This document shows, one piece after another, positions 20,565-63,979 of a DNA stretch of 64,000 nt (position 1 is the first letter of the stretch; every line of letters begins with the position of its first letter). A program made the position numbers and the translations under genes. The notes beneath the pieces are model-generated. The model saw only the letters and a list, made by a program, of their open reading frames with translations. It had not been told where the DNA came from and searched no databases. This DNA comes from an uncultured virus (IMG/VR IMGVR_UViG_3300020166_000012) (Duplodnaviria > Heunggongvirae > Uroviricota > Caudoviricetes). The stretch is taken from IMG/VR virus record IMGVR_UViG_3300020166_000012. One strand, given 5' to 3'.

Positions 20565-21079
20565 TTGTTCAACTTATTTTTGTGTGGAAATATTGGGTCA
20601 ATTGGATTTACATCAAGGAAGTCTGTCAATAGCTTTGTACTATCTCCACCAATAATATCAAGCACAAGCAAATCATTTGGTCGTTTCCAAAAATATTCGA
20701 GCACATCCTTATTATGAGAGTCATATGCTAAAGAAGCCTGTTCTCGATTAGGAAATGGTGAACCATAGACTCGAGTCCGAATGTCTACCTGACGTTGAGC
20801 CATGTTCCATCCACGCTTTCTTTCAAGGTATGGTACAATTGAATCCAACCAGTCTTTCTTATTACGAATAGTAATGATAAACTTAGAGTTTGGAAACTTC
20901 TGGTCGAGCTCTTTATACACCGGAATCACTGGAATGTCAGTGGCACCGTCTTTATGAAATCCCCAAAGTTCTTTTTCACTCGGATAGTGTACAACATCGT
21001 ATCCAAGTTCAATTAACGTTTCATTAAGTGTGGTTGTACCTGTACGTGATAGTCCAAGTCCAAAAATTTTAGATCTCAT
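20561..21079 (-). CDS. sulfotransferase-family P-loop protein
   Basis: GLGLSRTGTTTL, FIITIR...W..S. Confidence 0.8.
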   Translation of the reverse strand: MRSKIFGLGLSRTGTTTLNETLIELGYDVVHYPSEKELWGFHKDGATDIPVIPVYKELDQKFPNSKFIITIRNKKDWLDSIVPYLERKRGWNMAQRQVDIRTRVYGSPFPNREQASLAYDSHNKDVLEYFWKRPNDLLVLDIIGGDSTKLLTDFLDVNPIDPIFPHKNKLNK

Positions 21080-21878
21080 AATTCCATTCTTCTCTTGGTA
21101 AATTTACAACTCTTAGCAATTGCTCTTCGGTCATATTATCAGCACCAGGAAATTGGCAATGTACAAATCGGGTGCTTTCATCTCGGTGATCTATAATTCG
21201 CCGCTTTGGATTTATTTTGTCTTTTGTTCCGTGCACATAGCTATTCCAACCATTATGCATTTCAAGCATATTCATATTAGTAGCAAATATCATAGCATGT
21301 AGATATGGTTGGTCACACGTATAAAATGAATTAAGACCGGATTTATTTATTAGCTTAACGTAATCATCAAACGCAACCCATTTTTCTCGGGCATGTTGCA
21401 TTCCTTTATTAGAATACATTACAACACCGGTATTATAAACTTGTACTAGCCCATCTTCGGTACGCGGAACTTCTATACCATATTGCGCTTTTACTATCTG
21501 CGCCCATTTTTCATCTGTTTGACTTGTTATACGGCCAAGAGTAATTGTTCTTTGTTGCGGTTGAAACGGTTCAGTACAAATACCAATGTCCGCATCAAAG
21601 CCTTCGAAAATATTTTCTTTTAATCCATTAACCGGAAAAACATCAGTATCAGCAAATAAGACATTATCATATTCATTATATGGCGATTCAAACACGGGTT
21701 TAAAGGCACCGTAGTGTGGAGAATAGTTACCGAATCGCCGATCGTGAATATATTTAGGATTATCTTCAAATATATAATCAGCGCCAATGCGACTAGCATA
21801 AGCTTTCATTGCGTTCACACCGGCATGCACTGATTCTCTTACTGGCCCGTCCCAATATTGATAGATTAAATTTTTCAT
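21069..21878 (-). CDS. GT-A glycosyltransferase-like protein
   Basis: VLFADTDV, YNTGVV, DQPYL, WN. Confidence 0.75.
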   Translation of the reverse strand: MKNLIYQYWDGPVRESVHAGVNAMKAYASRIGADYIFEDNPKYIHDRRFGNYSPHYGAFKPVFESPYNEYDNVLFADTDVFPVNGLKENIFEGFDADIGICTEPFQPQQRTITLGRITSQTDEKWAQIVKAQYGIEVPRTEDGLVQVYNTGVVMYSNKGMQHAREKWVAFDDYVKLINKSGLNSFYTCDQPYLHAMIFATNMNMLEMHNGWNSYVHGTKDKINPKRRIIDHRDESTRFVHCQFPGADNMTEEQLLRVVNLPREEWNYEI

Positions 21879-38232: not shown

Positions 38233-39096
38233 TTAGGCGCGGTAAATCACCGTTTTATCGCCAGTAGAATTATCACCGGGTCTCGTAGTTGGACTTTTAA
38301 CGCCGTTCAAAAATGATTGAAAAGTTTTTGTGTTAACGGTTGGGCCATCAGCATATTCTGGTGTTTCAATTGTATGTTTATTAATAAAATCTGCTTCGCC
38401 CTTGCGTGTTTGCAATTGCTTTTGCCAACTATCACGTGTGATATCATTGGACTCCGGTTGCGCAGCTTCTTGAACAGATTCATCAGTATTTGATTTAGTA
38501 ATCCAATTAGAACCGTCTTTGTCGCTGGAATCATATGAGCAGTCTTCGTTTTTCGGTTTGTTAAATTCATCGCCGCACTCTTTGCATACTAAAGTTGCAT
38601 TATCAGTATCTTCATTTTTAGTTTCTGATACTTCATGATAACCGTTATTATCACAATGCTTGCAACCTTTGCCTTTGCATTCAGGGCAAACTTGACGCTC
38701 TTCATCCATAGCCTTTGCAATTGCTTTGCGGCGTTTATGAAGATATTCATCAGAAGAATCGATGTCGCCATCGTTATCAATGTCTTTGTCTTTACGGTCA
38801 TCGAATTTCTTCTTGACTGCTTTAGGCTGGACTTTATCCATACCTTCACCGTCATCAGACTTATCGTTAGTATTATCTTCGGTCTTACTCTTTTTATCCC
38901 ATGGGGCTTTTGGTAGAGTAACCTTTTCTATACCCTTTTTAGAAGCAGCACTTACTTTAGCTAACGCTTTACGCGTCGCAGCAACTGAACTTTCATCTAC
39001 GGTTTCTTCAGCAGGATTAGCCGCCGCTTCTTCCATTTGTTTTTGTTTTACTTGACCATATGTTGCGGCCAAATTTCGGATCCATTGATTATCCAT
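38233..39096 (-). CDS. charged low-complexity late protein with Zn-ribbon segments (possible head core protein)
   Basis: DIDNDGD..SSDEYLHKRRKAI, CPEC..CKHC, CKEC; several xxE-A/S sites. Confidence 0.65.
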   Translation of the reverse strand: MDNQWIRNLAATYGQVKQKQMEEAAANPAEETVDESSVAATRKALAKVSAASKKGIEKVTLPKAPWDKKSKTEDNTNDKSDDGEGMDKVQPKAVKKKFDDRKDKDIDNDGDIDSSDEYLHKRRKAIAKAMDEERQVCPECKGKGCKHCDNNGYHEVSETKNEDTDNATLVCKECGDEFNKPKNEDCSYDSSDKDGSNWITKSNTDESVQEAAQPESNDITRDSWQKQLQTRKGEADFINKHTIETPEYADGPTVNTKTFQSFLNGVKSPTTRPGDNSTGDKTVIYRA

Positions 39097-39108
39097 GATT
39101 GTATTCCT

Positions 39109-39396
39109 TTACATCCATATATTGGCGGCAACAGCCGCAATAACAGCAGTACAAACTGCCCAAAATATTTTATTAATAATAGAAATAGTTCTACTATTAT
39201 TTTCTGCTGTTTGCCCTAAATTATCTAGTTTTTCATCCATTTTATTTAATCGCTTATACATCATTGAATTATCTTTTTGGATGTTTAGAATTTTCTCTTC
39301 GGCGCGTGCCAAAGATACCATTGCTTCTGCTAGCAAATCTAATTTAACTTCTATTCGTTCTAGGCGCGATCTTTGTGACTCGTTATTATCGGACAT
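39109..39396 (-). CDS. coiled-coil protein with C-terminal TM
   Basis: RLERIE...LARAEEKI; late promoter at 39431-39438. Confidence 0.7.
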   Translation of the reverse strand: MSDNNESQRSRLERIEVKLDLLAEAMVSLARAEEKILNIQKDNSMMYKRLNKMDEKLDNLGQTAENNSRTISIINKIFWAVCTAVIAAVAANIWM

Positions 39397-39472
39397 ATAT
39401 TTAATTTCCCATGCGATAAATTATTATTGTTATTTATAATATAATATATTCAATACATATATTTTGTAATAA

Positions 39473-39712
39473 TTATTGACTACCAAATTCATGGCCGGCC
39501 ACTCGCTTCATTTGTTTATTAAATTCTTCTTGGTCCGGTTTTTTCTTGTATAGCTTAATAGAGATATTATCTTTATCTTTACCTTTAATACGCCATTTCA
39601 TACCATCCGCTTTATGTTCAGCATCAGTTGTTTTTACAACACGACGTTTATAGCCATCTTCCCAGGTTTCGGATCTTCCACCTTCGGCAATAAAAAGCTT
39701 AAATGGTTTCAT
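39473..39712 (-). CDS. putative internal head protein
   Basis: MKPFKLFIAE CTS-like N-terminus. Confidence 0.65.
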   Translation of the reverse strand: MKPFKLFIAEGGRSETWEDGYKRRVVKTTDAEHKADGMKWRIKGKDKDNISIKLYKKKPDQEEFNKQMKRVAGHEFGSQ

Positions 39713-39879
39713 TGGGATAACTCCGTCGTAGTTTCGGTTAATAAAGAAGTCTTAATTTGTAATTCTATTGGATTTGCTTCATTTAATTTAGTAGCGGATT
39801 CATTTGTAGGCTTACACTCACCACAGCAATTATCGGTACCACAATCCGGATGCTCATTCAATTGAGGATTAATTAACAT
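39709..39879 (-). CDS. small Cys-rich protein
   Basis: HPDCGTDNCCGEC. Confidence 0.55.
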   Translation of the reverse strand: MLINPQLNEHPDCGTDNCCGECKPTNESATKLNEANPIELQIKTSLLTETTTELSQ

Positions 39880-40156
39880 TTTTTTTACCCCTATTATCAT
39901 ATTCGCCCATTTTCATAACTTGTTCTTTAGCATACCATTGTGGGCTATATGTTTCATGCCAATCCCACTCGCGTGTTTTTGAATTCCACTCCAATACTTT
40001 CCACTCACCTTTATGACGAATATTTTCATCATATTGTTTTTCAATTTTAAATCTTCTACCGGTAGGAAAAGTAATTTCCTTTTCGCCGTTGGGTCCAGCC
40101 TTTTTCCATTTAGGCAATTTAACAGCTTCTGTTAAATGAGTTTTGAAACTTTTCAT
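39869..40156 (-). CDS. putative internal head protein
   Basis: MKSFKTHLTE CTS-like N-terminus. Confidence 0.65.
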   Translation of the reverse strand: MKSFKTHLTEAVKLPKWKKAGPNGEKEITFPTGRRFKIEKQYDENIRHKGEWKVLEWNSKTREWDWHETYSPQWYAKEQVMKMGEYDNRGKKNVN

Positions 40157-40446
40157 TTCATTAATTCTTTTATAATAGCTAAGGCTTTCTTACCATCAGG
40201 ATGGTTTGGATTTATACTTACTTCATCACCGTTCATAAAATCAGATATATTTGCTGATTTACCTAATGCTGTAATTGCTTTATGTAATGGATCTCTTTTA
40301 TCATATTTAGTTTCAAAATTAGGTTTACCCCGCAATTCAACCCAACTTTTTTCTTTAGTGTCTCTCATTTTTAAAGTATCCTGGCCTATGCCACGAATCA
40401 ATTTAACCATAACACCTTCAGAAATATATGTTTTAAATTTTAGCAT
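40153..40446 (-). CDS. putative internal head protein
   Basis: Reassigned start MLKFKTYISE. Confidence 0.65.
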   Translation of the reverse strand: MLKFKTYISEGVMVKLIRGIGQDTLKMRDTKEKSWVELRGKPNFETKYDKRDPLHKAITALGKSANISDFMNGDEVSINPNHPDGKKALAIIKELMK

Positions 40447-40448
40447 TG

Positions 40449-40754
40449 CTAAATACCCGGTTCTATTATTTTTAAAATTAAAGTGCCGTCGCTGGGACAA
40501 CCCGTAGGAGGTTTGCCCTTTATTAACCTATGATATTCCATTTTTTTTATTTGAAATGTTGTACCTTCTTCCATCATATGAGGAAGAGTATTTTCCATTT
40601 GGAATAACCAACCAGCACTATTATGTACAACAAGAACTAATCTATCTTTTTTATCCCTATGCCAATGTAAATCGCCGCCTTCACAATCATATGCAAAAGT
40701 TCTAAACCATACATTTTCTTCAACAGTTGGGATATCGAAATAAGGAGCTACCAA
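40449..40754 (-). CDS. cupin-like protein
   Basis: LHWHRD...W.FQ...EYHRLIKG; probable TTG start. Confidence 0.6.
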   Translation of the reverse strand: MVAPYFDIPTVEENVWFRTFAYDCEGGDLHWHRDKKDRLVLVVHNSAGWLFQMENTLPHMMEEGTTFQIKKMEYHRLIKGKPPTGCPSDGTLILKIIEPGI

Positions 40755-41284
40755 AAGAAATTTCCACCCCCGCTTAATCCCAGCTGATCGGCATAATATG
40801 GTAATCGACATGCCCAATAACCAGCAGTCATTTTATCGGTTTTTGTATCACATTGATGTCTAGCAGCAAAAGACTTACGAGCTGCCGGATCATCAATTTT
40901 TGCTTTCAATCCTGTGGTATCACCCCATGAAATTTTTTTAATCTTATCAGTTTTAGGATCTTTAACATAAACATAATATTTTTTTGGGCCGCCACGCTTT
41001 GGTTTATTTAATGGCATATCCTGCTCTTTTTCTTCGAGCATTGGTGAATCTAAGGGCACATGCTGATGATTATAAAAAGCAAATTCCCCAATATCGGTTT
41101 GTTCAATCATAAATAAATCGCGGCCAGATAACTCAATATTACCTTCAGCATATTGCTTTCGGGCATCTCTGAAAACTTTATAATAAGATTCTGAGCCAAC
41201 TCTATATAACTCACCAAGAGAAATATTATTTTCTACAACATACGTTAAATTAGTGTCATTTACAAAGTTTTTAAATTTAATCAT
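40748..41284 (-). CDS. putative internal head protein
   Basis: MIKFKNFV start; KKYYVYVK...ARKSFAARHQC...GYWAC. Confidence 0.7.
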   Translation of the reverse strand: MIKFKNFVNDTNLTYVVENNISLGELYRVGSESYYKVFRDARKQYAEGNIELSGRDLFMIEQTDIGEFAFYNHQHVPLDSPMLEEKEQDMPLNKPKRGGPKKYYVYVKDPKTDKIKKISWGDTTGLKAKIDDPAARKSFAARHQCDTKTDKMTAGYWACRLPYYADQLGLSGGGNFFW

Positions 41285-41285
41285 T

Positions 41286-41768
41286 TTATATTAATCCCTT
41301 TGAATCCATAACTAAATATCCTATACCGCCAAATACTCCGATACAAGCAAACATTAATATTAATATAGCTAAAGTATTTAATAAATTTTTACGCATTTCG
41401 GCCTGGCGATATACAGTTTCTTGCCTTTGTTTTGCTATCTTACGACGCATGCGAATTAATTCATCCCAGGCATTTGCTCCATATCTAAACATTAGCATTG
41501 TTCTTAATTCTTTTTCTTGTTCAATTATTTTCTTTTCTTGAATAAGCAATGCTAAAGCTTCTTCTTCAATAGATCCGCTAGCAAATAGCCGTTTAAAAAT
41601 TGGCGGATTTTTTGCTTGTTCTTTTGCAAATCTAAAATCATTTACTGCGCTATACCACTTACCTAATTGCTGAGCAGTATCTTCAAATTCCCTACCAGCC
41701 GCAACCATTCGAGTTACTACATTATATGCAGAGGTAGCCATAGTTATTGCTGATATTGGATCTATCAT
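41286..41768 (-). CDS. membrane-anchored hypothetical protein
   Basis: MIDPISA start, C-terminal TM. Confidence 0.75.
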   Translation of the reverse strand: MIDPISAITMATSAYNVVTRMVAAGREFEDTAQQLGKWYSAVNDFRFAKEQAKNPPIFKRLFASGSIEEEALALLIQEKKIIEQEKELRTMLMFRYGANAWDELIRMRRKIAKQRQETVYRQAEMRKNLLNTLAILILMFACIGVFGGIGYLVMDSKGLI

Positions 41769-42019
41769 TATTCGGTTTCTTTTTTATCTAAAACTGCATA
41801 CATGTCTTTAGCTTTTTCATGAAACCCGCTTAATTTATTTTGCATCCATTCCGGAAATTTTTTATTATTTTGAATATGTTCAGCTACTTCTTTGCCTACA
41901 TATTGAATAAATTCTGCTTGTTGCATAGCCATACCGGCTTCATCTGGGGAAGCCGGTTTATCATCTTCTGGCGCTTCTGTAATAATGCGGAATTCTCTTA
42001 ATTGGGTAAAGGATTTCAT
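41768..42019 (-). CDS. putative internal head protein
   Basis: MKSFTQLRE; PEWMQNKL. Confidence 0.65.
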   Translation of the reverse strand: MKSFTQLREFRIITEAPEDDKPASPDEAGMAMQQAEFIQYVGKEVAEHIQNNKKFPEWMQNKLSGFHEKAKDMYAVLDKKETE

Positions 42020-42020
42020 T

Positions 42021-44879
42021 TTATTTTACCTTACTCATTGCAAAATCCATCATTTTCATAAACCTGGTTTCGTCTTTGTTAATTGCGTCAGCAAACTTTT
42101 TCTTGTTTGCATCGTTCAACGAGTCATGCACCTTTACCATTGCAGATGCAGTGAACATATCAACTTTTGTCTTTGAACCAGAAGCAAATTTAACAGCTCC
42201 GGCCGACTTTGTGTTTACGATTTTACGAAGATCATCGATAACGCCTTCTGATACAACTTCTACATAATCTTTATTACTAGGTAATTTGCCTTTATTAAGA
42301 CCATTTTTAGCTTTATGTTTATCAAATGTGGGTTTAATACCACGCTTTTTAGCATTCTTTTCAGCTTTATCGATATCAACCATATGCTTAGCATAACCCT
42401 TCTTAAACATTTTAGGGTCAGATTTTTTATGTTCATCGTCATTTTTTGATTGCTTTTTATTACGCCAATCAATAAATTTTTTGCCGGACATTGCTGCGGC
42501 CCGATCACTGGAGGTATATTTACCGCCAAATAGACCTTTATTATCTTTGTATTTAGCACTGGTACCAGCAGCCTCTTCTAGCGGATTAGTAAAGCTATCG
42601 GCCTTTAAGCGGCCAATAATACGTCCACCCCCATCTGTAACAATAAAATCGCCGTTATCAGCAATACGAGAAGTTGTTCCGGCTTTTGCTCTTTTACCAC
42701 CAAGAGCCTTTGTCATTAGGGCCTTTACTGCTCTTTCTTTTACGCCTTCATCAAGTTCAATTTCTTCATTACGTATATTTTTCTGAAATGCTTTGTATTC
42801 TTTGCGGCGGTCTGCGTCTTTATCTAATAAAGAAAGAATTTTTTCACGTGGCTCTGTGTCTAAGTCATCGACAAACTTCTTCAGTTGTGCTGTTTGACCT
42901 TTCTTCATCATCATAGCAGCTTTTATAAAGTCCATCTTATCAATGCCGCCATGTTTACGGGCATAATCTTCAAGTTCTTTTGCAACACGTGACATTGTAG
43001 CTTCATCAAGATTCGATTCTCTTATTGAGGCTTTGTACAATTCTAAACCTTTAGAATATGCTGGGTTTTTCATCATTCGCTTTGACTCAGCATCATCTGG
43101 ATTTTGATGAGCCATGCGAACTGTTGGTTCGTCTAATTTATTGGCTTTCATATGCTTTTTATATGCATCAAACTTTTTAGAATCTACTGCTGGACCAAAT
43201 CTGTTTCTCATCGGCGTGGTTGTTTCATTAACAGATTCAGCAAGCTTCCAACCCTTTGCAAGATATTCTTTTTGTTTAGTCTTATCAATAACAATAGTTT
43301 TGCCGGCTTTATCTACAACCATGACTTCGGTTTTAGGATTTTTTAACTGCCGAGCCTCCTCAACAGATTCGGTAAATTCAACTGGAACAAGGATGGATCC
43401 TTTAGACCCACCATTAACCATCATCATTTCATCACCTTTACGAGCAATTTTAAAATCTTTGTGAATTTTTTTAAAGTTAGCTTTTGAAATATAAACTTTA
43501 TTATTTTTTACTTCATAATCGCGATCCCGTAAAACGGCTTCGTCAAGCGATTCAAATTGCATAGTATGTTGGCCACTGCCACGAACCTTTTCGGCTGCGG
43601 CTTTAGATGAATATGGGGCACCTTGATTAACAAATTTGCCACCAGAAAACTTTTGAACCTGAAACCCGGATTTTGCTTTAGCGCCGGCTCTGTTATCAGG
43701 GTGGGCATTCGACAAATCTATAATACGGATTTGACCGGTTTTAGCTTCAGAAATAGCCTCATCGCCCTTATCGGTTTCGCTGTTTATATTTTGTTTAAAT
43801 TTATTCCAATTATAATCGCGGATAATTTTTAAGATTGCATCTCTATTACTAGAACGCTTGTCAATATATTTACCAACAATGACATCAATAGACATTTTGG
43901 CTTCAAGATCTTTAATAATCTTTTTAGCTGGTAATTTAGCTTCATCTACATATTCAATACCTTCTTTCATATCGATAAGACTTGCACCTAAATCGCCAAT
44001 AGCAAAGGTAATTTTACCGTCCTTTTTTCTACGTAAGAAAGATTTAACACCACCAGATTTTGCTTGAAGAGTAATTTTTTCTTGTTCGGAAGGCTTACCT
44101 TTTAAAACGGTTGTTTTTGATAAAACTTTATATTCGACAAAATCTCCACCTTTAGATAACGTTGAATCAAATTTAATTTTTACATTATCATTTTTCTTTA
44201 ACTTATCGAAAATAGCAGAATGTTTGTCGGTCATTTCAGTTAATCCTTTAATTTGTGTAATTTCTGTGGTAGCTTCTGCCATTGCAGGCTTTTCAATCAT
44301 ATACATTTGTACAGATTCCGTTGGAACAATTCCACCACTTTTCCATACTTTTGGGGCAATAAGAACTCGCGGTCCTCTTAATTCTTTTACAATATAATCC
44401 ATTTTAGCTTCGGCTGGTCCGTCAGCGTATTTCTTTTTTAAACGAACAGTATCACCTTTTTTAATTTCGGTTTTTGCTTCATAAGCTGGGCCACGCTTTG
44501 GTGATCCTGGATTTGGCTGTTTTAAATTTTTACGAAGTGCTGCAAGATCATTTTTAAGCTTGCTTATCTTAAAAGATTTCATAACATTTGAATTGCCAGA
44601 TTTTGTTATAGCATTTTTTGTTAATTGCATAGACTCTTCGGTATTTTCTTTACGTGACATAGATTTATCCATTTTATCGGCCGCGGAATTGAATAGTTTA
44701 GTATAAGTTTTTTCATTTTCGGCGGCCGAAGGCATTGCCATCATAACATCATCATTAACAAGATCCCAATTAATTGAACCATCTTTATTATAATTAGCCT
44801 TATCTTTTAAAGACTTTTTTATGTGTTTTTCAATATTAGATTTATTAAGAGAAGCCTCTTGCAAATTACGATTTTCCAT
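42021..44879 (-). CDS. 952-aa modular polyprotein-like late protein
   Basis: GAGG RBS before MENRNLQE; basic modules separated by acidic xxE linkers. Confidence 0.8.
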   Translation of the reverse strand: MENRNLQEASLNKSNIEKHIKKSLKDKANYNKDGSINWDLVNDDVMMAMPSAAENEKTYTKLFNSAADKMDKSMSRKENTEESMQLTKNAITKSGNSNVMKSFKISKLKNDLAALRKNLKQPNPGSPKRGPAYEAKTEIKKGDTVRLKKKYADGPAEAKMDYIVKELRGPRVLIAPKVWKSGGIVPTESVQMYMIEKPAMAEATTEITQIKGLTEMTDKHSAIFDKLKKNDNVKIKFDSTLSKGGDFVEYKVLSKTTVLKGKPSEQEKITLQAKSGGVKSFLRRKKDGKITFAIGDLGASLIDMKEGIEYVDEAKLPAKKIIKDLEAKMSIDVIVGKYIDKRSSNRDAILKIIRDYNWNKFKQNINSETDKGDEAISEAKTGQIRIIDLSNAHPDNRAGAKAKSGFQVQKFSGGKFVNQGAPYSSKAAAEKVRGSGQHTMQFESLDEAVLRDRDYEVKNNKVYISKANFKKIHKDFKIARKGDEMMMVNGGSKGSILVPVEFTESVEEARQLKNPKTEVMVVDKAGKTIVIDKTKQKEYLAKGWKLAESVNETTTPMRNRFGPAVDSKKFDAYKKHMKANKLDEPTVRMAHQNPDDAESKRMMKNPAYSKGLELYKASIRESNLDEATMSRVAKELEDYARKHGGIDKMDFIKAAMMMKKGQTAQLKKFVDDLDTEPREKILSLLDKDADRRKEYKAFQKNIRNEEIELDEGVKERAVKALMTKALGGKRAKAGTTSRIADNGDFIVTDGGGRIIGRLKADSFTNPLEEAAGTSAKYKDNKGLFGGKYTSSDRAAAMSGKKFIDWRNKKQSKNDDEHKKSDPKMFKKGYAKHMVDIDKAEKNAKKRGIKPTFDKHKAKNGLNKGKLPSNKDYVEVVSEGVIDDLRKIVNTKSAGAVKFASGSKTKVDMFTASAMVKVHDSLNDANKKKFADAINKDETRFMKMMDFAMSKVK

Positions 44880-45357
44880 TGTAACCTCTACCGATTGATT
44901 TACGGAATTGTTTAACACCAACTCTATCAGACATGTCTTGGCCCTTTTCACGCTTACGAATAGTTTCTTTTTCTTTTGAAATTTCAGGATTGCCGCGAAG
45001 AAGTTTAGCTGTTGCAGTATTACGAGCCTTATCACTTTTCATTTTAGCTTTTTTTCTATAGCTATCCAATGCGCCTGGACGATCTAGAACTTCATCAATA
45101 GTCTCTTCATTCTTGCCTCTTACTTTATCCGCTAAATCTTTATCGGCTTTGCCCCATGTGCCCGGAGATTTTGTAGTAAACGAATTAACCCTAGCAAATC
45201 CCCATTGTTCAGGAGTGGTTCCAGGTCTATGACCGGTTTTCCAAGCCGCTACACCGCGGTTATATACACTACGTAAAACACTTAATGGCATTCCAGATTT
45301 TTCCGCTTTATTTTTAAGTGCTTTAGTATTTTCATTAAATTGTTTAAAAGTTTTCAT
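44866..45357 (-). CDS. putative internal head protein
   Basis: MKTFKQFNE; VYNRG.AAW.TGHRPG...W..ARVNSF. Confidence 0.7.
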   Translation of the reverse strand: MKTFKQFNENTKALKNKAEKSGMPLSVLRSVYNRGVAAWKTGHRPGTTPEQWGFARVNSFTTKSPGTWGKADKDLADKVRGKNEETIDEVLDRPGALDSYRKKAKMKSDKARNTATAKLLRGNPEISKEKETIRKREKGQDMSDRVGVKQFRKSIGRGYNGKS

Positions 45358-46556
45358 GGCTTTGTCGATCTATTTGTTGAACGTGTTTGTAAAGTTCGCG
45401 CGCGATCTCGCATTGCATCAAATTTGATTTTATCTGCTCTTTTTTCTCTATTAATTCTATCATTTACTTTATCAATATAATCAATTTCTTCGTCGGTATC
45501 GCCAAACATTTGTGCAAATCGTTTAGTGTGCTTACTTGGCTTAGTTTTTGCAGTGGCATCGCCTGGTGCTTTTTTATAAGCATCGGGATTATTATCAGCC
45601 TTTTTAGCATTCTTTTTAAAATGTTGGTCTCTAGCAATTTTTGTAGACTTGTTCTTTATTCCAGCAAAATACTTTTTAGGCTGCGCTCCATCACGGTCCG
45701 CAATATCGGGATCTTGGGTAGTAGTTGTTTTTTCTTCAATTTTTTCAATTCTATCAAGCCATTGTCTAGATTTTCCGGATGAAGTTTCAACAATTACATA
45801 ATTTGGGCCAAGTGTTGCAATAATACCAACCTCGCTTGTTTCAGTAATAATAATTTCTTCGCCTATAGAATACAAATCACCCTTTACATATTGCTCTCTA
45901 ATATCAGAAATAGATTCTAATTGAATGTGACGTTTAAATTCGGTTTCTTCTTTTAATCCCATGCCTTTACGCACATCATTAAAAAGTTTTTTTGCATCAG
46001 AATTACTCATTGAAGTAGGAAGACCTTCATAAAATTTTGTGAAATTATTCTCTGCGGCAAATTTACGCTGCTTAGTTCCAGACGCACCGTCTGGCCCATC
46101 GCTATCAGCATCTCGCATACCGGCCGATATTACCTGAACCCCACCATTAAAATTATAAAATCCGTGAGTAGAATCAACTCCATTATATTTATTTAATCTA
46201 ATTTTATATTCATCCACTCTATCACTACCAGCTACCATAATAACTTTACGGAAACCCTGATCATAAAGATAAGCTAATGCAAAAAAAGGATTAATAATTT
46301 TTTTATTAATTAAAATATTGCGGGCATGTTTTGGAAACATTTTTCGCACATGCTTTACCTTGTCCGCATATTTCAAAGGATTATCTTTTTTATCCTGAGA
46401 TTGAGATAAAAAGATTTTATACGGCAAACGGCCAGCGGTTTGCGCTAGTTTATTTAATAATTTACCATGACCAACAGTAGGCGGATTTAATCTACCAAAA
46501 GTAAAATATACTATTTGGTCTTCTTCAATAATATATTGTTTAAAAGAATTAACCAT
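45354..46556 (-). CDS. HxGH-type nucleotidyltransferase (phage 'cytidyltransferase') with C-terminal extension
   Basis: FGRLNPPTVGH, VAGSDR, SGTKQR; CTS-like start. Confidence 0.85.
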   Translation of the reverse strand: MVNSFKQYIIEEDQIVYFTFGRLNPPTVGHGKLLNKLAQTAGRLPYKIFLSQSQDKKDNPLKYADKVKHVRKMFPKHARNILINKKIINPFFALAYLYDQGFRKVIMVAGSDRVDEYKIRLNKYNGVDSTHGFYNFNGGVQVISAGMRDADSDGPDGASGTKQRKFAAENNFTKFYEGLPTSMSNSDAKKLFNDVRKGMGLKEETEFKRHIQLESISDIREQYVKGDLYSIGEEIIITETSEVGIIATLGPNYVIVETSSGKSRQWLDRIEKIEEKTTTTQDPDIADRDGAQPKKYFAGIKNKSTKIARDQHFKKNAKKADNNPDAYKKAPGDATAKTKPSKHTKRFAQMFGDTDEEIDYIDKVNDRINREKRADKIKFDAMRDRARTLQTRSTNRSTKP

Positions 46557-46995
46557 TTTTAGATTGTGCCTTATGCTGTTTTCTATCTTTTTCAGCTTGA
46601 CGCATTTTTGGAAGCAATTTTACAGCAATGCGATCTATTCTTGAGCCCATTTTCTCAAGCCGTTTTTCTAATTCCATTTTACGAGCAACTGACATATCAC
46701 TTTTCGGAATATCTTTTGTAAGTTTTTTAAGAATAATATTACGGGCTGCTTTACGTGCACGTTTTTTTAACACATCTTTATTGGCAGTACGACGTGCGGC
46801 GCGGTTGCGCCCCATTTTTAATTTAGCTTTATTACGTTTCATACTACGGCCGCGAGCTAATCGCTGTTGAATATTGAGAGCCTCATCTGGGCCACCACTA
46901 CCGCCGGTTCTTTTTGTTCTATGTGCTTGATGTTGAACTTCGTCTGGTTCTCCATCACGCATATCTACAACTCTTAGATCTTTAAATCTAATCAT
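46549..46995 (-). CDS. basic hypothetical protein
   Basis: R/K-rich; DE-ALNIQQR. Confidence 0.7.
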   Translation of the reverse strand: MIRFKDLRVVDMRDGEPDEVQHQAHRTKRTGGSGGPDEALNIQQRLARGRSMKRNKAKLKMGRNRAARRTANKDVLKKRARKAARNIILKKLTKDIPKSDMSVARKMELEKRLEKMGSRIDRIAVKLLPKMRQAEKDRKQHKAQSKNG

Positions 46996-48224
46996 TAACT
47001 TCTCCCTGGCTTATCCCATCCTTTAATAATATCTGGCGAAAAGTTGTTGTATGAAAATTCTAATCTATCAACAATCTTTACAGCGTCACTACCCAGTCTA
47101 TCAATTGCTACATAACCTTCTTGACCCGTTGTTTTAAAACCATTTTTAGTTTTTACAAAAGTCTTTACTTTATTTATCCTATCAAGTATATTTATAAGTT
47201 TTAATTTCGCTAAGACAATAACTTTCTGCAATTCGAACATAGTTATCAAATTATTTTTATTATTAGCCGAAAAAAATGATAAAATATCATTCAGTTTATC
47301 TTGTTTGCGCCCCTTACCTTTTTCAGTTTTAAGCTTATCCATTTCTTTTTGGAATTTTGCTTCAATAAATTTAATAAGTGCCGTTACTCTTTTGGCTGGA
47401 TCCGGGGGCATTTGGCCTGCCCGTACATAAGAATTTGAATGTTGCTCTATTAATTGTGTTAAATCAGTATTAGCTTCTAAGGTGCGTAAAACGCCCCCCG
47501 AAATTTTATTAAATAATTTTCCAGCTTGAGTTAAATAGTCATTTACTATATCGGAATCAGACTTATTCATAGTAAGATTTGTCATATCACGAAGCATAGC
47601 ATCTTGCGACCAAACATTTTTTGATTTTTTAAGACGAGAAACATTAACACCATATGAAGCTTTCATAGTTTCAAATGTATTACCTTTATATGTAGTATGC
47701 CAAACAATACCAATTTTAGATGCTAAAATTTCTTTTGATGATACTGTATTAGCTGGTACAGCATAAACAATAGTATTTGGATGGAAGGTGATATATTTTT
47801 CACCAGCAATAGTTTCATTACTAAGATCGCCTGGGCCGTATAAAAAATCGCCCTGAATAACTTCAGTAATTCCCAATTCGGGTAAATATTGTAAGGCTTG
47901 CTTAAGCTTTATAGCTAAATCGCCTGAAGTATCTGCATCTACCTCACCTGGAGTTTTATATACTTTTGGATTTTTATTAAAAATACCCTTTTTAGCAACA
48001 AAAAATTTGCCATCAGCTGGATCAATGCCAGCAAATACTGCTGGTGCTCCATCCCATTTAACAGATATTTTCCCGTCATGTTCGCCCTTTAACATATTAC
48101 GCAATTCGCGCAAAGCCATAATAGCTTGACGAGTACCATTAACACCACCATAAATCACCTTATCTTCAAGGTGTGTCATGTGAGTATTTTTGTTTTCAGC
48201 AATGAAAGATTTAAAGTTTTCCAT
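46995..48224 (-). CDS. ligase-like nucleotidyltransferase-fold protein
   Basis: SVKWDGAP (KxDG), QGD, EGYV, KIVDRLEFS; MENFKSFIAE start. Confidence 0.7.
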   Translation of the reverse strand: MENFKSFIAENKNTHMTHLEDKVIYGGVNGTRQAIMALRELRNMLKGEHDGKISVKWDGAPAVFAGIDPADGKFFVAKKGIFNKNPKVYKTPGEVDADTSGDLAIKLKQALQYLPELGITEVIQGDFLYGPGDLSNETIAGEKYITFHPNTIVYAVPANTVSSKEILASKIGIVWHTTYKGNTFETMKASYGVNVSRLKKSKNVWSQDAMLRDMTNLTMNKSDSDIVNDYLTQAGKLFNKISGGVLRTLEANTDLTQLIEQHSNSYVRAGQMPPDPAKRVTALIKFIEAKFQKEMDKLKTEKGKGRKQDKLNDILSFFSANNKNNLITMFELQKVIVLAKLKLINILDRINKVKTFVKTKNGFKTTGQEGYVAIDRLGSDAVKIVDRLEFSYNNFSPDIIKGWDKPGRS

Positions 48225-49843: not shown

Positions 49844-49851
49844 TATTTATA
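49844..49851 (-). promoter_or_regulatory. late promoter TATAAATA heading the internal-protein operon
   Basis: Exact motif about 30 nt upstream of the 49812 start. Confidence 0.7.
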
Positions 49852-51265: not shown

Positions 51266-51472
51266 TTATGCGAAGTGGTTATCAACAAGCACACTAATGC
51301 AATCATTCAGATACTCAGTATCATAGAAGACTCCAAGTGGAATAAAGATATCAGACTCAACAAAGTTCCAATTGATACCGCCACCTTCGTGGATATTTTC
51401 TGGATTAACCACCGCAGCATTGAAAGCTTCGATAATGTCATTCTTAATCATTGCGCCATAAGTAGTAAGCAT
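51266..51472 (-). CDS. early protein, INW-motif family (paralog of 63689-63979)
   Basis: IKND..EAFN.A...EN....INW.FVE.D. Confidence 0.75.
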   Translation of the reverse strand: MLTTYGAMIKNDIIEAFNAAVVNPENIHEGGGINWNFVESDIFIPLGVFYDTEYLNDCISVLVDNHFA

Positions 51473-51552
51473 AGTGTTTCCCCTTTTGATATATTAGTTA
51501 TATCATATTAAGATCTGATTGTAAACCCCTAAAATGCATTTTTTTTATTTTT

Positions 51553-51993: not shown

Positions 51994-52251
51994 TTATGCC
52001 ACCTCATAGCCTATTACAGTTTCTACATATCCATTACCATACTCTTCAGCAATCGCCAATAGGATCTGCTCACGTGGTTCTGTATCCATATTACCGATTT
52101 TTGCTAAAGCGCCGTCAATGTCATTCGAATTCATCAGCCACTGCACCTGCTTAAAATCAGCCGTATCGGCCAGATATAGATCAGCAAGGCCTGCATCTTG
52201 TGCTTCTAAGCTATAGCTGAATGTTTGATCGATAAGTTTTTGAATAGTCAT
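51994..52251 (-). CDS. early protein, DTEPRE-motif family
   Basis: AGGAG RBS; promoter at 52281-52310. Confidence 0.75.
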   Translation of the reverse strand: MTIQKLIDQTFSYSLEAQDAGLADLYLADTADFKQVQWLMNSNDIDGALAKIGNMDTEPREQILLAIAEEYGNGYVETVIGYEVA

Positions 52252-52358
52252 GATAGGCTCCTTTGTTTCATTCTATATTAGTTATACCATATAATAAAGA
52301 GAATGTAAATAAAAAAGATGCCCCAAAGGACATCTTTTTCTTTAATGTGATATATTTG

Positions 52359-61109: not shown

Positions 61110-61904
61110 TTAGAATGCAAAGCTTAATTCAATTGAAGGAGAAAAATCTTCACTATTTAAATTATAATTTGCGCCTGTGGTAAGCTCAGCGCCCGCAATA
61201 CCATATACAAATTCGCCACCAATATTTTGTAGCATATCAGTGTCGTCACCATTAATATATGTTGTAATTACAGATTGCTTTGCTACAAGCTCATAACCTA
61301 TTGCTGTAGTGTCTACATCATAAGATACTGCACCGCCAACTGCGGCAACACCAAGATCAACACCAGTAACGCCGGCGCCAAATACAGTATTTTCAGTATT
61401 TAAGTTATAATCAGCAGCGGCAGTAATTTCAATTCCAGCTACGGATGGGAGTACAATTGCGCCCTGTACATTGCTAATATCTGTAATATCGGCAGCAATA
61501 TCAGTAAATCCGATAGCCGCAGAAATTGCACCCATATTTACTTGTACAGATTCAGCCATTGCTGGAGCAGTAAGTGTTTGCTCGCCTTCGGCACCTGGCA
61601 TTACACCATTGTCATCGCCAATTGCAATATCGATACCGGCTACTTGTGTGCCAATTGTCCAATTATCAAGAGTAACACCATTTCCGTCTGTTGCAGAAAA
61701 GTCAAGGTTTACAGTTGAAATACCAGCAACATCAATACCAAGATCGAATGTTGGAGTTGCGGCCCATTTATCTGCAGCGGTTTCTGCAAATGTTAAAACA
61801 GCTTTACCAGATAATGTTGGGCCATATGGCAGTACTGTAGTTTCAGCATATGCTGCACCAGCAAATCCTGTTACAAGTGCAGATGTGATAAGTAAATTAC
61901 GCAT
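61110..61904 (-). CDS. porin-like outer-membrane beta-barrel protein
   Basis: Signal peptide, amphipathic strands, C-terminal SFAF. Confidence 0.75.
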   Translation of the reverse strand: MRNLLITSALVTGFAGAAYAETTVLPYGPTLSGKAVLTFAETAADKWAATPTFDLGIDVAGISTVNLDFSATDGNGVTLDNWTIGTQVAGIDIAIGDDNGVMPGAEGEQTLTAPAMAESVQVNMGAISAAIGFTDIAADITDISNVQGAIVLPSVAGIEITAAADYNLNTENTVFGAGVTGVDLGVAAVGGAVSYDVDTTAIGYELVAKQSVITTYINGDDTDMLQNIGGEFVYGIAGAELTTGANYNLNSEDFSPSIELSFAF

Positions 61905-61949
61905 TTCGTATATTCTTTCTGATTTTATAAAAATTTTAAATATTAAATA

Positions 61950-62267
61950 TGCCACTTTTCTGTTGCTAAGCAAGTGGCCAGCTCCCTGTGTTTATGCAGC
62001 TAGTGCATAACCAGATGGTGCAAAGTTATTATTTGCAGTTATAGTGTTTGATCTATACGCGATCATCCGGTTAACTCCACTTCCACTTTCACACCTGTCG
62101 ATCCTAAATGTCAGCCCCATCAAAAACACTTGAAACTTCTCCATAGCATCAGGTAGCTAAATCCTTATCTACTTCATCGAATATAGGTCGTCACCTATCA
62201 AGTGCTTATGGTGGAGCTGTCGGGATTCGCACCCGAGTCCAGTATGTGTCCACGTCGCTTCAACGTT
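61950..62267 (-). ncRNA. ssrA: two-piece (circularly permuted) tmRNA, tag ANNNFAPSGYALAA
   Basis: Acceptor piece ending CAGCTCCACCA (62210) precedes the coding piece starting GGGGCTG (62118); tag ORF at 62036-61992. Confidence 0.92.
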
Positions 62268-63688: not shown

Positions 63689-63979
63689 TTATACTCCCAA
63701 ATAATCGGTTTTTAGAATTTCGAGTTGCCCAATAGCGTTTGGATAACGAGTGAGTAAATTTTCAGTATTGTCTAGCAAGTCGTCACGTAAAACATCTAAG
63801 CAGTCTATGATATATGATCGGGTATATACAAAACATTCATTGTACATATCAGCTTCAACAAAAGCCCAATTGATTTTGTTATTATAATCAAAATTCTCGC
63901 GAAGAAAAATCGCGGTATTAAAAGCTTCGACTACATCATTTTTGATGGCCGAACCATTTGCTAGATGATAGATTGTCAT
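63689..63979 (-). CDS. INW-motif family protein (paralog of 51266-51472)
   Basis: IKNDVVEAFN.A...EN....INWAFVEAD. Confidence 0.75.
   Translation of the reverse strand: MTIYHLANGSAIKNDVVEAFNTAIFLRENFDYNNKINWAFVEADMYNECFVYTRSYIIDCLDVLRDDLLDNTENLLTRYPNAIGQLEILKTDYLGV

Follow-up and report, generated by a model that had tools for sequence, protein, structure and literature searches.

An early-type INW domain embedded in a candidate head-cargo polyprotein of an uncultured T4-like phage

The stretch of 64,000 nucleotides analysed here (the window) comprises the first 64 kb of a contig of 129 kb from an uncultured marine T4-like phage, recorded in IMG/VR as IMGVR_UViG_3300020166_000012. It encodes a long polyprotein and two small proteins, hereafter the 51k and 63k paralogs (Table 1), and the first module of the polyprotein (module 1) shares with the two small proteins a motif centred on Ile-Asn-Trp (INW). 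The start of the polyprotein is most likely the ATG at 44879 rather than the GTG at 45035, because most of the members listed for its database cluster have the resulting length, and Pfam and PHROG gave no family match for the protein below E 0.01. A gp21-type protease (genome positions 103801-104454), gp22 and gp23 are encoded on the same contig (PF03420, PF25623 and PF07068; PHROG 207, 237 and 138). Variants of the polyprotein sit on contigs of about 200 kb, and the 129-kb genome is thus incomplete.

An earlier note on this DNA had proposed that module 1 and the two free paralogs are copies of one small domain. The three INW peptides were found where it had placed them, all on the minus strand, that of module 1 being polyprotein residues 27-44 (44801-44748), and the spacing N-x6-INW-x2-V-x2-D is true of every copy. 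The pattern N-x5,6-INW-x2-V-x2-D, composed after the sequences had been seen, occurs in exactly three of the 1,841 stop-to-stop open reading frames (ORFs) of the 129-kb genome, and these are the same three copies. In pairwise BLOSUM62 comparisons with the whole polyprotein, the 51k paralog scores 54, which none of 2000 shuffles equals, and the 63k paralog scores 44; the latter pair is weak when taken alone, because 28 of 2000 shuffles score as high. A profile hidden Markov model (HMM) made from the 51k protein and 89 homologs (90 sequences), the polyprotein having been left out, has 51k, 63k and module 1 as its top three among the genome ORFs, module 1 scoring 17.7 bits (independent E-value, i-E, 2.2e-4) and the next ORF having E 0.21. 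A broader HMM from 143 free sequences reaches module 1 at 46 bits (E 5e-13) and covers all three helices, and it is only partly independent because 4 of its seed sequences were first found via module 1. Alignment of the embedded with the free alignment by hhalign gives 99.6% (E 8e-24, 63 columns), compared with 0.2% for a control in which the DTEPRE family was set against the same free alignment. Chance or motif-only likeness is ruled out by the independent profile, the hhalign result and its control. The homology covers all three helices and thus extends beyond the motif, and the earlier proposal holds: one domain occurs in three copies, two of them free behind early-type promoters and one embedded. 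Module 1 is a variant of this INW family. It retains the invariant N, W and D together with the near-invariant G and V, and it is atypical in being neutral, embedded and part of a late-type run, as opposed to an acidic stand-alone protein with an early-type promoter.

The fold was predicted with AlphaFold2 from disjoint alignments, one of 128 free rows and the other of the 3 embedded rows only. The free model (51k) has helices at residues 11-21, 35-46 and 52-67 with a predicted local distance difference test score (pLDDT) of 95.7, and the module 1 model has helices at 5-16, 30-40 and 45-71 with a pLDDT of 84.9, one of its five models exceeding 80. Compared by helix positions, the predicted folds agree in a matching three-helix layout, as the earlier note had expected. 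In Foldseek searches, the same pair of unnamed viral structures takes the first two places for both models (probability 0.90-1.00, E 0.05-0.08). The best matches of the two models in the PDB are generic three-helix bundles, with Z 5.7 (root-mean-square deviation 3.4) and 6.1 (3.5) and 63 aligned positions each. The alpha-helical domain of PNPase is among the top fold matches of both models (Z 4.7-5.7), a modelled likeness below the level of kinship that may serve as a weak lead, and winged-helix, homeodomain and RecX bundles are found there as well. In the comparison with known anti-defence or host-takeover proteins, the best sequence match had E 0.25, an Atlas search gave no usable feature match, and the fold searches (at most Z 6.1) identified no host target or partner.

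Table 1. Features discussed in the text, with their positions in the window
Feature	Position	Strand	Remarks
Polyprotein	42021..44879	-	952 amino acids, lysine-rich, about 13 pieces (cuts placed by the analyst)
Module 1, embedded INW domain (polyprotein residues 9-82)	44634..44855	-	Predicted three helices, net charge about 0
Eight-residue leader ending L-Q-E before Ala9	44856..44879	-	Predicted gp21-type cut
Second neutral module (polyprotein residues 627-711)	42747..43001	-	Resembles the free DTEPRE gene at 51994-52251
Free INW paralog 51k	51266..51472	-	68 amino acids, acidic, pI 4.05
Free INW paralog 63k	63689..63979	-	96 amino acids, acidic, pI 4.29, C-terminal tail
Free DTEPRE-family gene	51994..52251	-	Own promoter at 52309
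Sigma70-type (early-type) promoter of the 51k gene	51495..51525	-	TTTACA box and TATAAC box
T4-type late promoter TATAAATA	49844..49851	-	Heads a run of abutting genes that includes the polyprotein
Cargo-like cluster around the polyprotein	38233..48224	-	DUF6267, cytidyltransferase-like, DUF5824, small genes

A search of 1.84 billion representatives returned 422 for the INW family at E 0.001 or better. Among the best 150 of these 422, 144 are 50-137 amino acids long, and the others comprise one polyprotein, three false matches to repeat proteins and two long-tailed proteins. The counts given here exclude P0097, P0110 and P0239, considered false hits, each a long repeat protein containing 10-13 short stretches, and also P0138 and P0219, in which the INW domain is N-terminal and long unrelated tails follow; P0132 was counted as embedded, and six further rows, with the motif absent or the core short, were removed from the counts of cut sites and of lysine plus arginine. 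For 128 INW members, no Pfam, PHROG or NCBIfam family was found below E 0.001. By a strict pattern, a sigma70-type promoter precedes 27 of 57 free INW genes, compared with 105 of 912 other ORFs, and by a looser pattern in a second locus set the counts are 73 of 102 and 45 of 165, respectively. A T4 late box precedes none of the 57 and none of the 102 genes. The 63k gene has its sigma70-type promoter just beyond the window (genome position 64035). Because such promoters precede them, we infer from promoter type that the free INW genes are early genes. Ten RNA-labelled runs contain part of the stretch, including four of one study at 0.83-0.84. Cultured phages gave no match when they were searched with a single free member or a single embedded copy, and in prokaryote genomes 4 of 23 motif loci match the family, all of them in metagenome bins and probably phage contigs.

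Several further features of the free family were observed. Paralog pairs recur, as tandem free INW genes in L025:1933-2385 and as two genes in one locus in L263. INW also forms the C-terminal domain of a 171-residue acidic protein with an unrelated N-terminal part (L125, L126, L138 and L221), a second type of fusion that is not cargo-like. The C-terminal tail of 63k, which ends in L-K-T-D-Y-L-G, is shared by several of the free members and could be a distinct small motif. In several relatives, free INW and free DTEPRE genes adjoin or lie within about 3 kb of each other (L153:4099-4663; L016; L144-L146), and a complex prediction for the two free proteins gave a score of 0.00, which speaks neither for nor against their pairing.

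The INW domain is also embedded in two more polyproteins, which belong to other phages and are differently built (P0132/L103 and L133). In P0132/L103 (338 amino acids) it lies between VIE↓A and LNE↓G, where the arrow marks the site, and the C-terminal module is weakly DTEPRE-like (6.3 bits). In L133 it lies between VNE↓A and LDE↓A; the preceding module resembles, by eye, the free gene at 41768-42019 of the window, and the gene cluster that holds L133 is that of the window polyprotein, 9 adjoining ORFs having matches among the window genes. The helix-2 motif reads WNFVDAD in L103 and WNFIDAD in L133. In all three architectures the INW domain begins right after [LIV]-x-E↓A, and since its neighbouring modules differ in all three, it moves as one unit whose start follows a gp21-type site. 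Embedded forms are rare or under-sampled, because few of them were returned by the searches made. One search of longer proteins found 2 embedded among 27 candidates, both of them this phage's own polyproteins, and another found 3 among 1,399, namely this phage's own polyproteins and P0132. A motif scan of viral contigs, covering 29 of 64 parts of the collection with a pattern that would overlook the window's own INW variant, gave 120 family-positive loci of 120 and none embedded.

Other signs of rearrangement were seen in these proteins. The window gene at 41768-42019 is stand-alone with a targeting-like leader and, judged by eye, resembles fused modules in L133 (30-200) and L068, which would represent fusion and fission in the cargo cluster. 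Thirty-three viral loci (L068-L100) and the phage Melnitz carry the first module of P0132; in the 18 loci inspected it lies within very different long proteins (286-1139 amino acids) and is highly mobile. A stretch M-K-S-F-K in the polyprotein after module 1 (window 44560-44600) resembles the leaders of adjoining cargo genes, and F-M-K-F before the INW module of P0132 (residues 55-70) is likewise leader-like; both are possibly relics of fused, formerly separate genes.

The embedded copies are distinguished from the free ones by their charge and cut sites. The free INW core has a median net charge of -8 and reaches 0 or above in 2 of 145 members, whereas the three embedded cores carry +2, +4 and 0. 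Lysine and arginine together number 9, 11 and 9 in the embedded cores against a free maximum of 8, and the Asp count is the same. At least one internal [LIV]-x-E site is present in 94 of 139 free members and in none of the three embedded copies. Among the 13 pieces of the polyprotein, the INW and DTEPRE pieces have a net charge of 0 and the other 11 range from +2 to +15; INW and DTEPRE are the two pieces with acidic free relatives in this genome, the DTEPRE-like match being weaker than that of INW (i-E 0.18 genome-wide). The neutralised charge and the absence of internal sites are read as signs of adaptation to the capsid.

Cleavage by T4 gp21 is described as occurring after L/I-x-E (PMC9026906). 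Sites of the form [LIV]-x-E-[AGSD] number 11 in the polyprotein against 3.0 expected, which puts it at the top of 170 ORFs; the gp22 scaffold likewise has 11 against 3.3 expected, and gp21 ranks fourth. The narrower form [LIV]-x-E-A occurs 7 times in the polyprotein against 0.9 expected. A module shared with the cultured phage Melnitz starts at LTE↓M in the window and at IDE↓M in Melnitz. The site upstream of module 1, L-Q-E8, fits L/I-x-E, and the other two architectures have canonical sites downstream. The net charge of the polyprotein is +59, compared with -46 for gp22 here. The polyprotein adjoins a cytidyltransferase-like gene, and NMNAT/cytidylyltransferase-like proteins have been reported in cyanophage virion proteomes (PMC9602691). 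Five adjoining genes start with M-x(0-2)-[KNS]-x-F-[KST]-x-[FYHL]-x(1-3)-E, and the polyprotein does not. This pattern was modelled on the leader of a T4 internal protein. A second copy of the late promoter lies at 47196, the late class being assigned by the T4-type consensus.

Considering these sequence features, it is rather probable that the late polyprotein is packaged in the prohead, that its INW domain is cut free by the gp21-type protease, and that the domain is injected with the DNA. Module 1 would enter the prohead core as part of the late polyprotein, and the protease would cut at Glu8 and downstream, releasing the domain. After ejection with the DNA, it would act on a host target before phage transcription, and the embedded copy would make available on entry an activity for which the free genes first have to be transcribed. 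Our guess is that this activity is the binding and inhibition of a host protein, of either defence or transcription, because the domain is small, has no enzyme fold, varies widely, has paralogs and retains one short conserved patch; binding might be mediated by the N-x3-D-G-S-[IV]-N-W-[ND]-F-V-D-[AS]-D loop and helix 2.

Several observations weigh against packaging, release and injection. The V and the [AGSD] tail were put into the site motif after the polyprotein had been seen, and the third-ranked ORF for this motif is a non-head ORF (21069-21878). Plain L/I-x-E is found 10 times in the polyprotein against 6.8 expected (p 0.12), whereas it is enriched in gp22 and gp21. The downstream boundary of module 1, T-E-E82↓S, is non-canonical, and the released piece may be longer than module 1 because the next L/I-x-E is at residue 215. 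In addition, the leader of the polyprotein departs from the canonical T4 capsid-targeting sequence. Module 1 is altered at F32, D34 and A35 (WDLVNDD compared with WNFVDAD), and its branch is the longest among the embedded copies (0.64), so the function of the window copy could be relaxed. Internal sites are likewise absent from 45 of the 139 free members, and the traits of the embedded copies amount to a single observation because the three form one clade. Finally, the fold searches (best Z 5.7 and 6.1) gave no match pointing to function. The lack of plain-site enrichment, the non-canonical downstream site and the missing canonical leader would also be expected if the polyprotein remained uncut and acted in one piece, INW being one binding domain of a multivalent protein of the late phase or the virion. 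We regard this as improbable, as the INW domain starts at such a site in every architecture, modules common to unrelated proteins also begin at such sites, and the excess of [LIV]-x-E-A is large. The main rival, which is unlikely but deserves more weight than the uncut form, is a passive core filler: the captured domain would be packaged and cut, serving only as basic DNA counter-charge or as a scaffold spacer like T4 gp67, gp68 and gp22, with the early host-directed function lost. It would accommodate the lysine gain in all three embedded copies, the three altered helix-2 residues of the window copy, and a site enrichment equal to that of the gp22 scaffold, which T4 is described as degrading (PMC9958956). 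Against it, the copies in the three architectures, at 40-60% identity, all retain N21, G26, W30 and D36 as well as the F and D of helix 3, L103 and L133 have a near-perfect motif, the cut sites flank the INW domain with none inside, and INW is neutral whereas 11 of the 13 pieces are basic.

The origin of module 1 can be addressed on the basis of identities and a tree (50 of 148 rows, 65 columns, unrooted). The other embedded copies share 44% and 40% identity with module 1, no free member shares more than 36% with it, and the paralogs of its own genome share 16% and 14% (ranks 137 and 146 of 147; 141 and 144 after masking of K, R and E). All three embedded copies fall into one clade with support 100/97, and the log-likelihood drops by 22-28 when module 1 is forced together with its own paralogs. 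DNA likeness between module 1 and the paralogs is not significant, the best piece being 28 nucleotides near 63.8 kb (E 1.1). The low identity, the embedded clade and the DNA comparison argue against capture from the 51k or 63k gene, and the sequences suggest that the domain was captured once, longer ago, from a different branch of the family and was then shuffled between polyproteins. The earlier note's exchange between the early-gene pool and the polyprotein is thus upheld in part: the two share a domain, and an exchange with this genome's own paralogs is not supported by these results. Less favourable to an older capture, masking K, R and E lowers the clade support to 93/88 and leaves no starred set holding module 1, although the other embedded copies are still nearest to it by path, and the approximately unbiased (AU) test leaves the groupings of the window copy with its own paralogs (p 0.087) and with 51k (p 0.198) unrejected. 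Derivation from, or exchange with, the 51k and 63k genes draws some appeal from these p values and from the presence of all three copies in one genome, and is nevertheless very improbable given the identities, likelihoods and DNA comparison above. Equally hard to credit is the reverse direction, in which capsid cargo came first and gave rise to the free early family. The tree is unrooted and would permit it, but one polyprotein was found among the best 150 of 422 representatives, the motif scan, over 29 of 64 parts of the collection, returned no embedded form among its 120 loci, and the embedded copies are one small clade. By parsimony, the free forms being far more numerous and diverse, the direction would be from early gene to cargo, with no root to fix it.

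More tentatively, an older capture followed by packaging may be part of a wider practice, in which marine T4-like phages pre-load captured early mini-proteins for host takeover or anti-defence in modular form, retuned for the capsid, released by the protease and injected. The retuning would consist in neutralising the acidic surface and purging internal protease sites while the binding motif is kept. If this is true, such polyproteins would be a catalogue of effectors important in the first seconds of infection, and INW would be a widespread, undescribed inhibitor family of more than 400 divergent members. The analysis outlines a concrete route for phages to turn an early gene into virion-delivered cargo, a readable signature of capture (flanking cut sites, loss of internal sites and charge shift), and a large unannotated family to be flagged for host-target screening.

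Matches to Methylophilales phage Melnitz and phage C48C1 were obtained with other modules of the polyprotein, and the Melnitz protein QZI94753.1 has modules in common with it. In Melnitz, a cultured phage (L139:6647-8035 and L139:12203-12721), the module at polyprotein residues 216-305 is found, and the last module (residues 869-952) has a 44% identical counterpart in another gene; Melnitz therefore offers an experimental handle on processing. A DUF1127 gene, a cytochrome c gene and a porin-like ORF (G000:C1:87507-88402, L303; window 61110-61973), the last called by eye and without a Pfam match, hint at an alphaproteobacterial host.

The underlying principle is already known from T4 Alt and Mod and from the internal proteins; what is new here is the independent profile test, the two further architectures and the evidence for an old capture from outside the resident paralogs. 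No description of gp21-cut polyproteins made of early-gene domains was found in the literature covered, which left out most subscription journals. Polyvalent proteins, as presented in PMC5512222, similarly carry many unrelated domains per chain, which are presumed to reach the cell at entry and to be set free by proteolysis, and they differ in having embedded zincin-like peptidases and large enzymatic domains. The window polyprotein consists of pieces of 40-110 residues with no peptidase domain recognised (Pfam and PHROG, E 0.01), and unlike polyvalent proteins it would depend on the gp21-type head protease in trans. T4 gp22, gp67 and gp68 also have many gp21-type sites on one chain, but they are degraded to peptides that leave the head, whereas the window polyprotein is basic, not strongly acidic like the gp22 of this genome, and its sites lie between folded, reusable domains.

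The T4 internal proteins IPI, IPII and IPIII are described as small, prohead-loaded proteins that are injected once gp21 has trimmed them after L/I-x-E (PMC9026906, PMC9958956), each blocking a distinct GmrSD type IV restriction enzyme according to PMC12373910. They are single genes with their own leader, whereas the polyprotein chains many modules without a canonical leader, and INW, which has a large free acidic family, gave no profile or fold match to the internal proteins in the libraries searched. Since the small injected proteins of T4 proved to be such inhibitors, free and embedded pairs are a rational hunting ground for restriction inhibitors. T4 Alt and ModA/ModB, in the account of PMC5512222, represent one family with a packaged, protease-trimmed and injected copy and non-packaged paralogs; the trimming of Alt by gp21 is placed at both ends, at ITE-6 and LTE-619 (PMC5694885). 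A gene of its own encodes Alt, a single large ADP-ribosyltransferase, and INW is a 70-residue domain without a recognisable enzyme fold, one of about 13 pieces and shuffled among architectures; no sequence or fold link between INW and Alt or Mod appeared in the searches made. Membership in either group is not claimed. By analogy, the best reading is that the INW module would be deployed as Alt is beside ModA/ModB, and as the internal proteins are.

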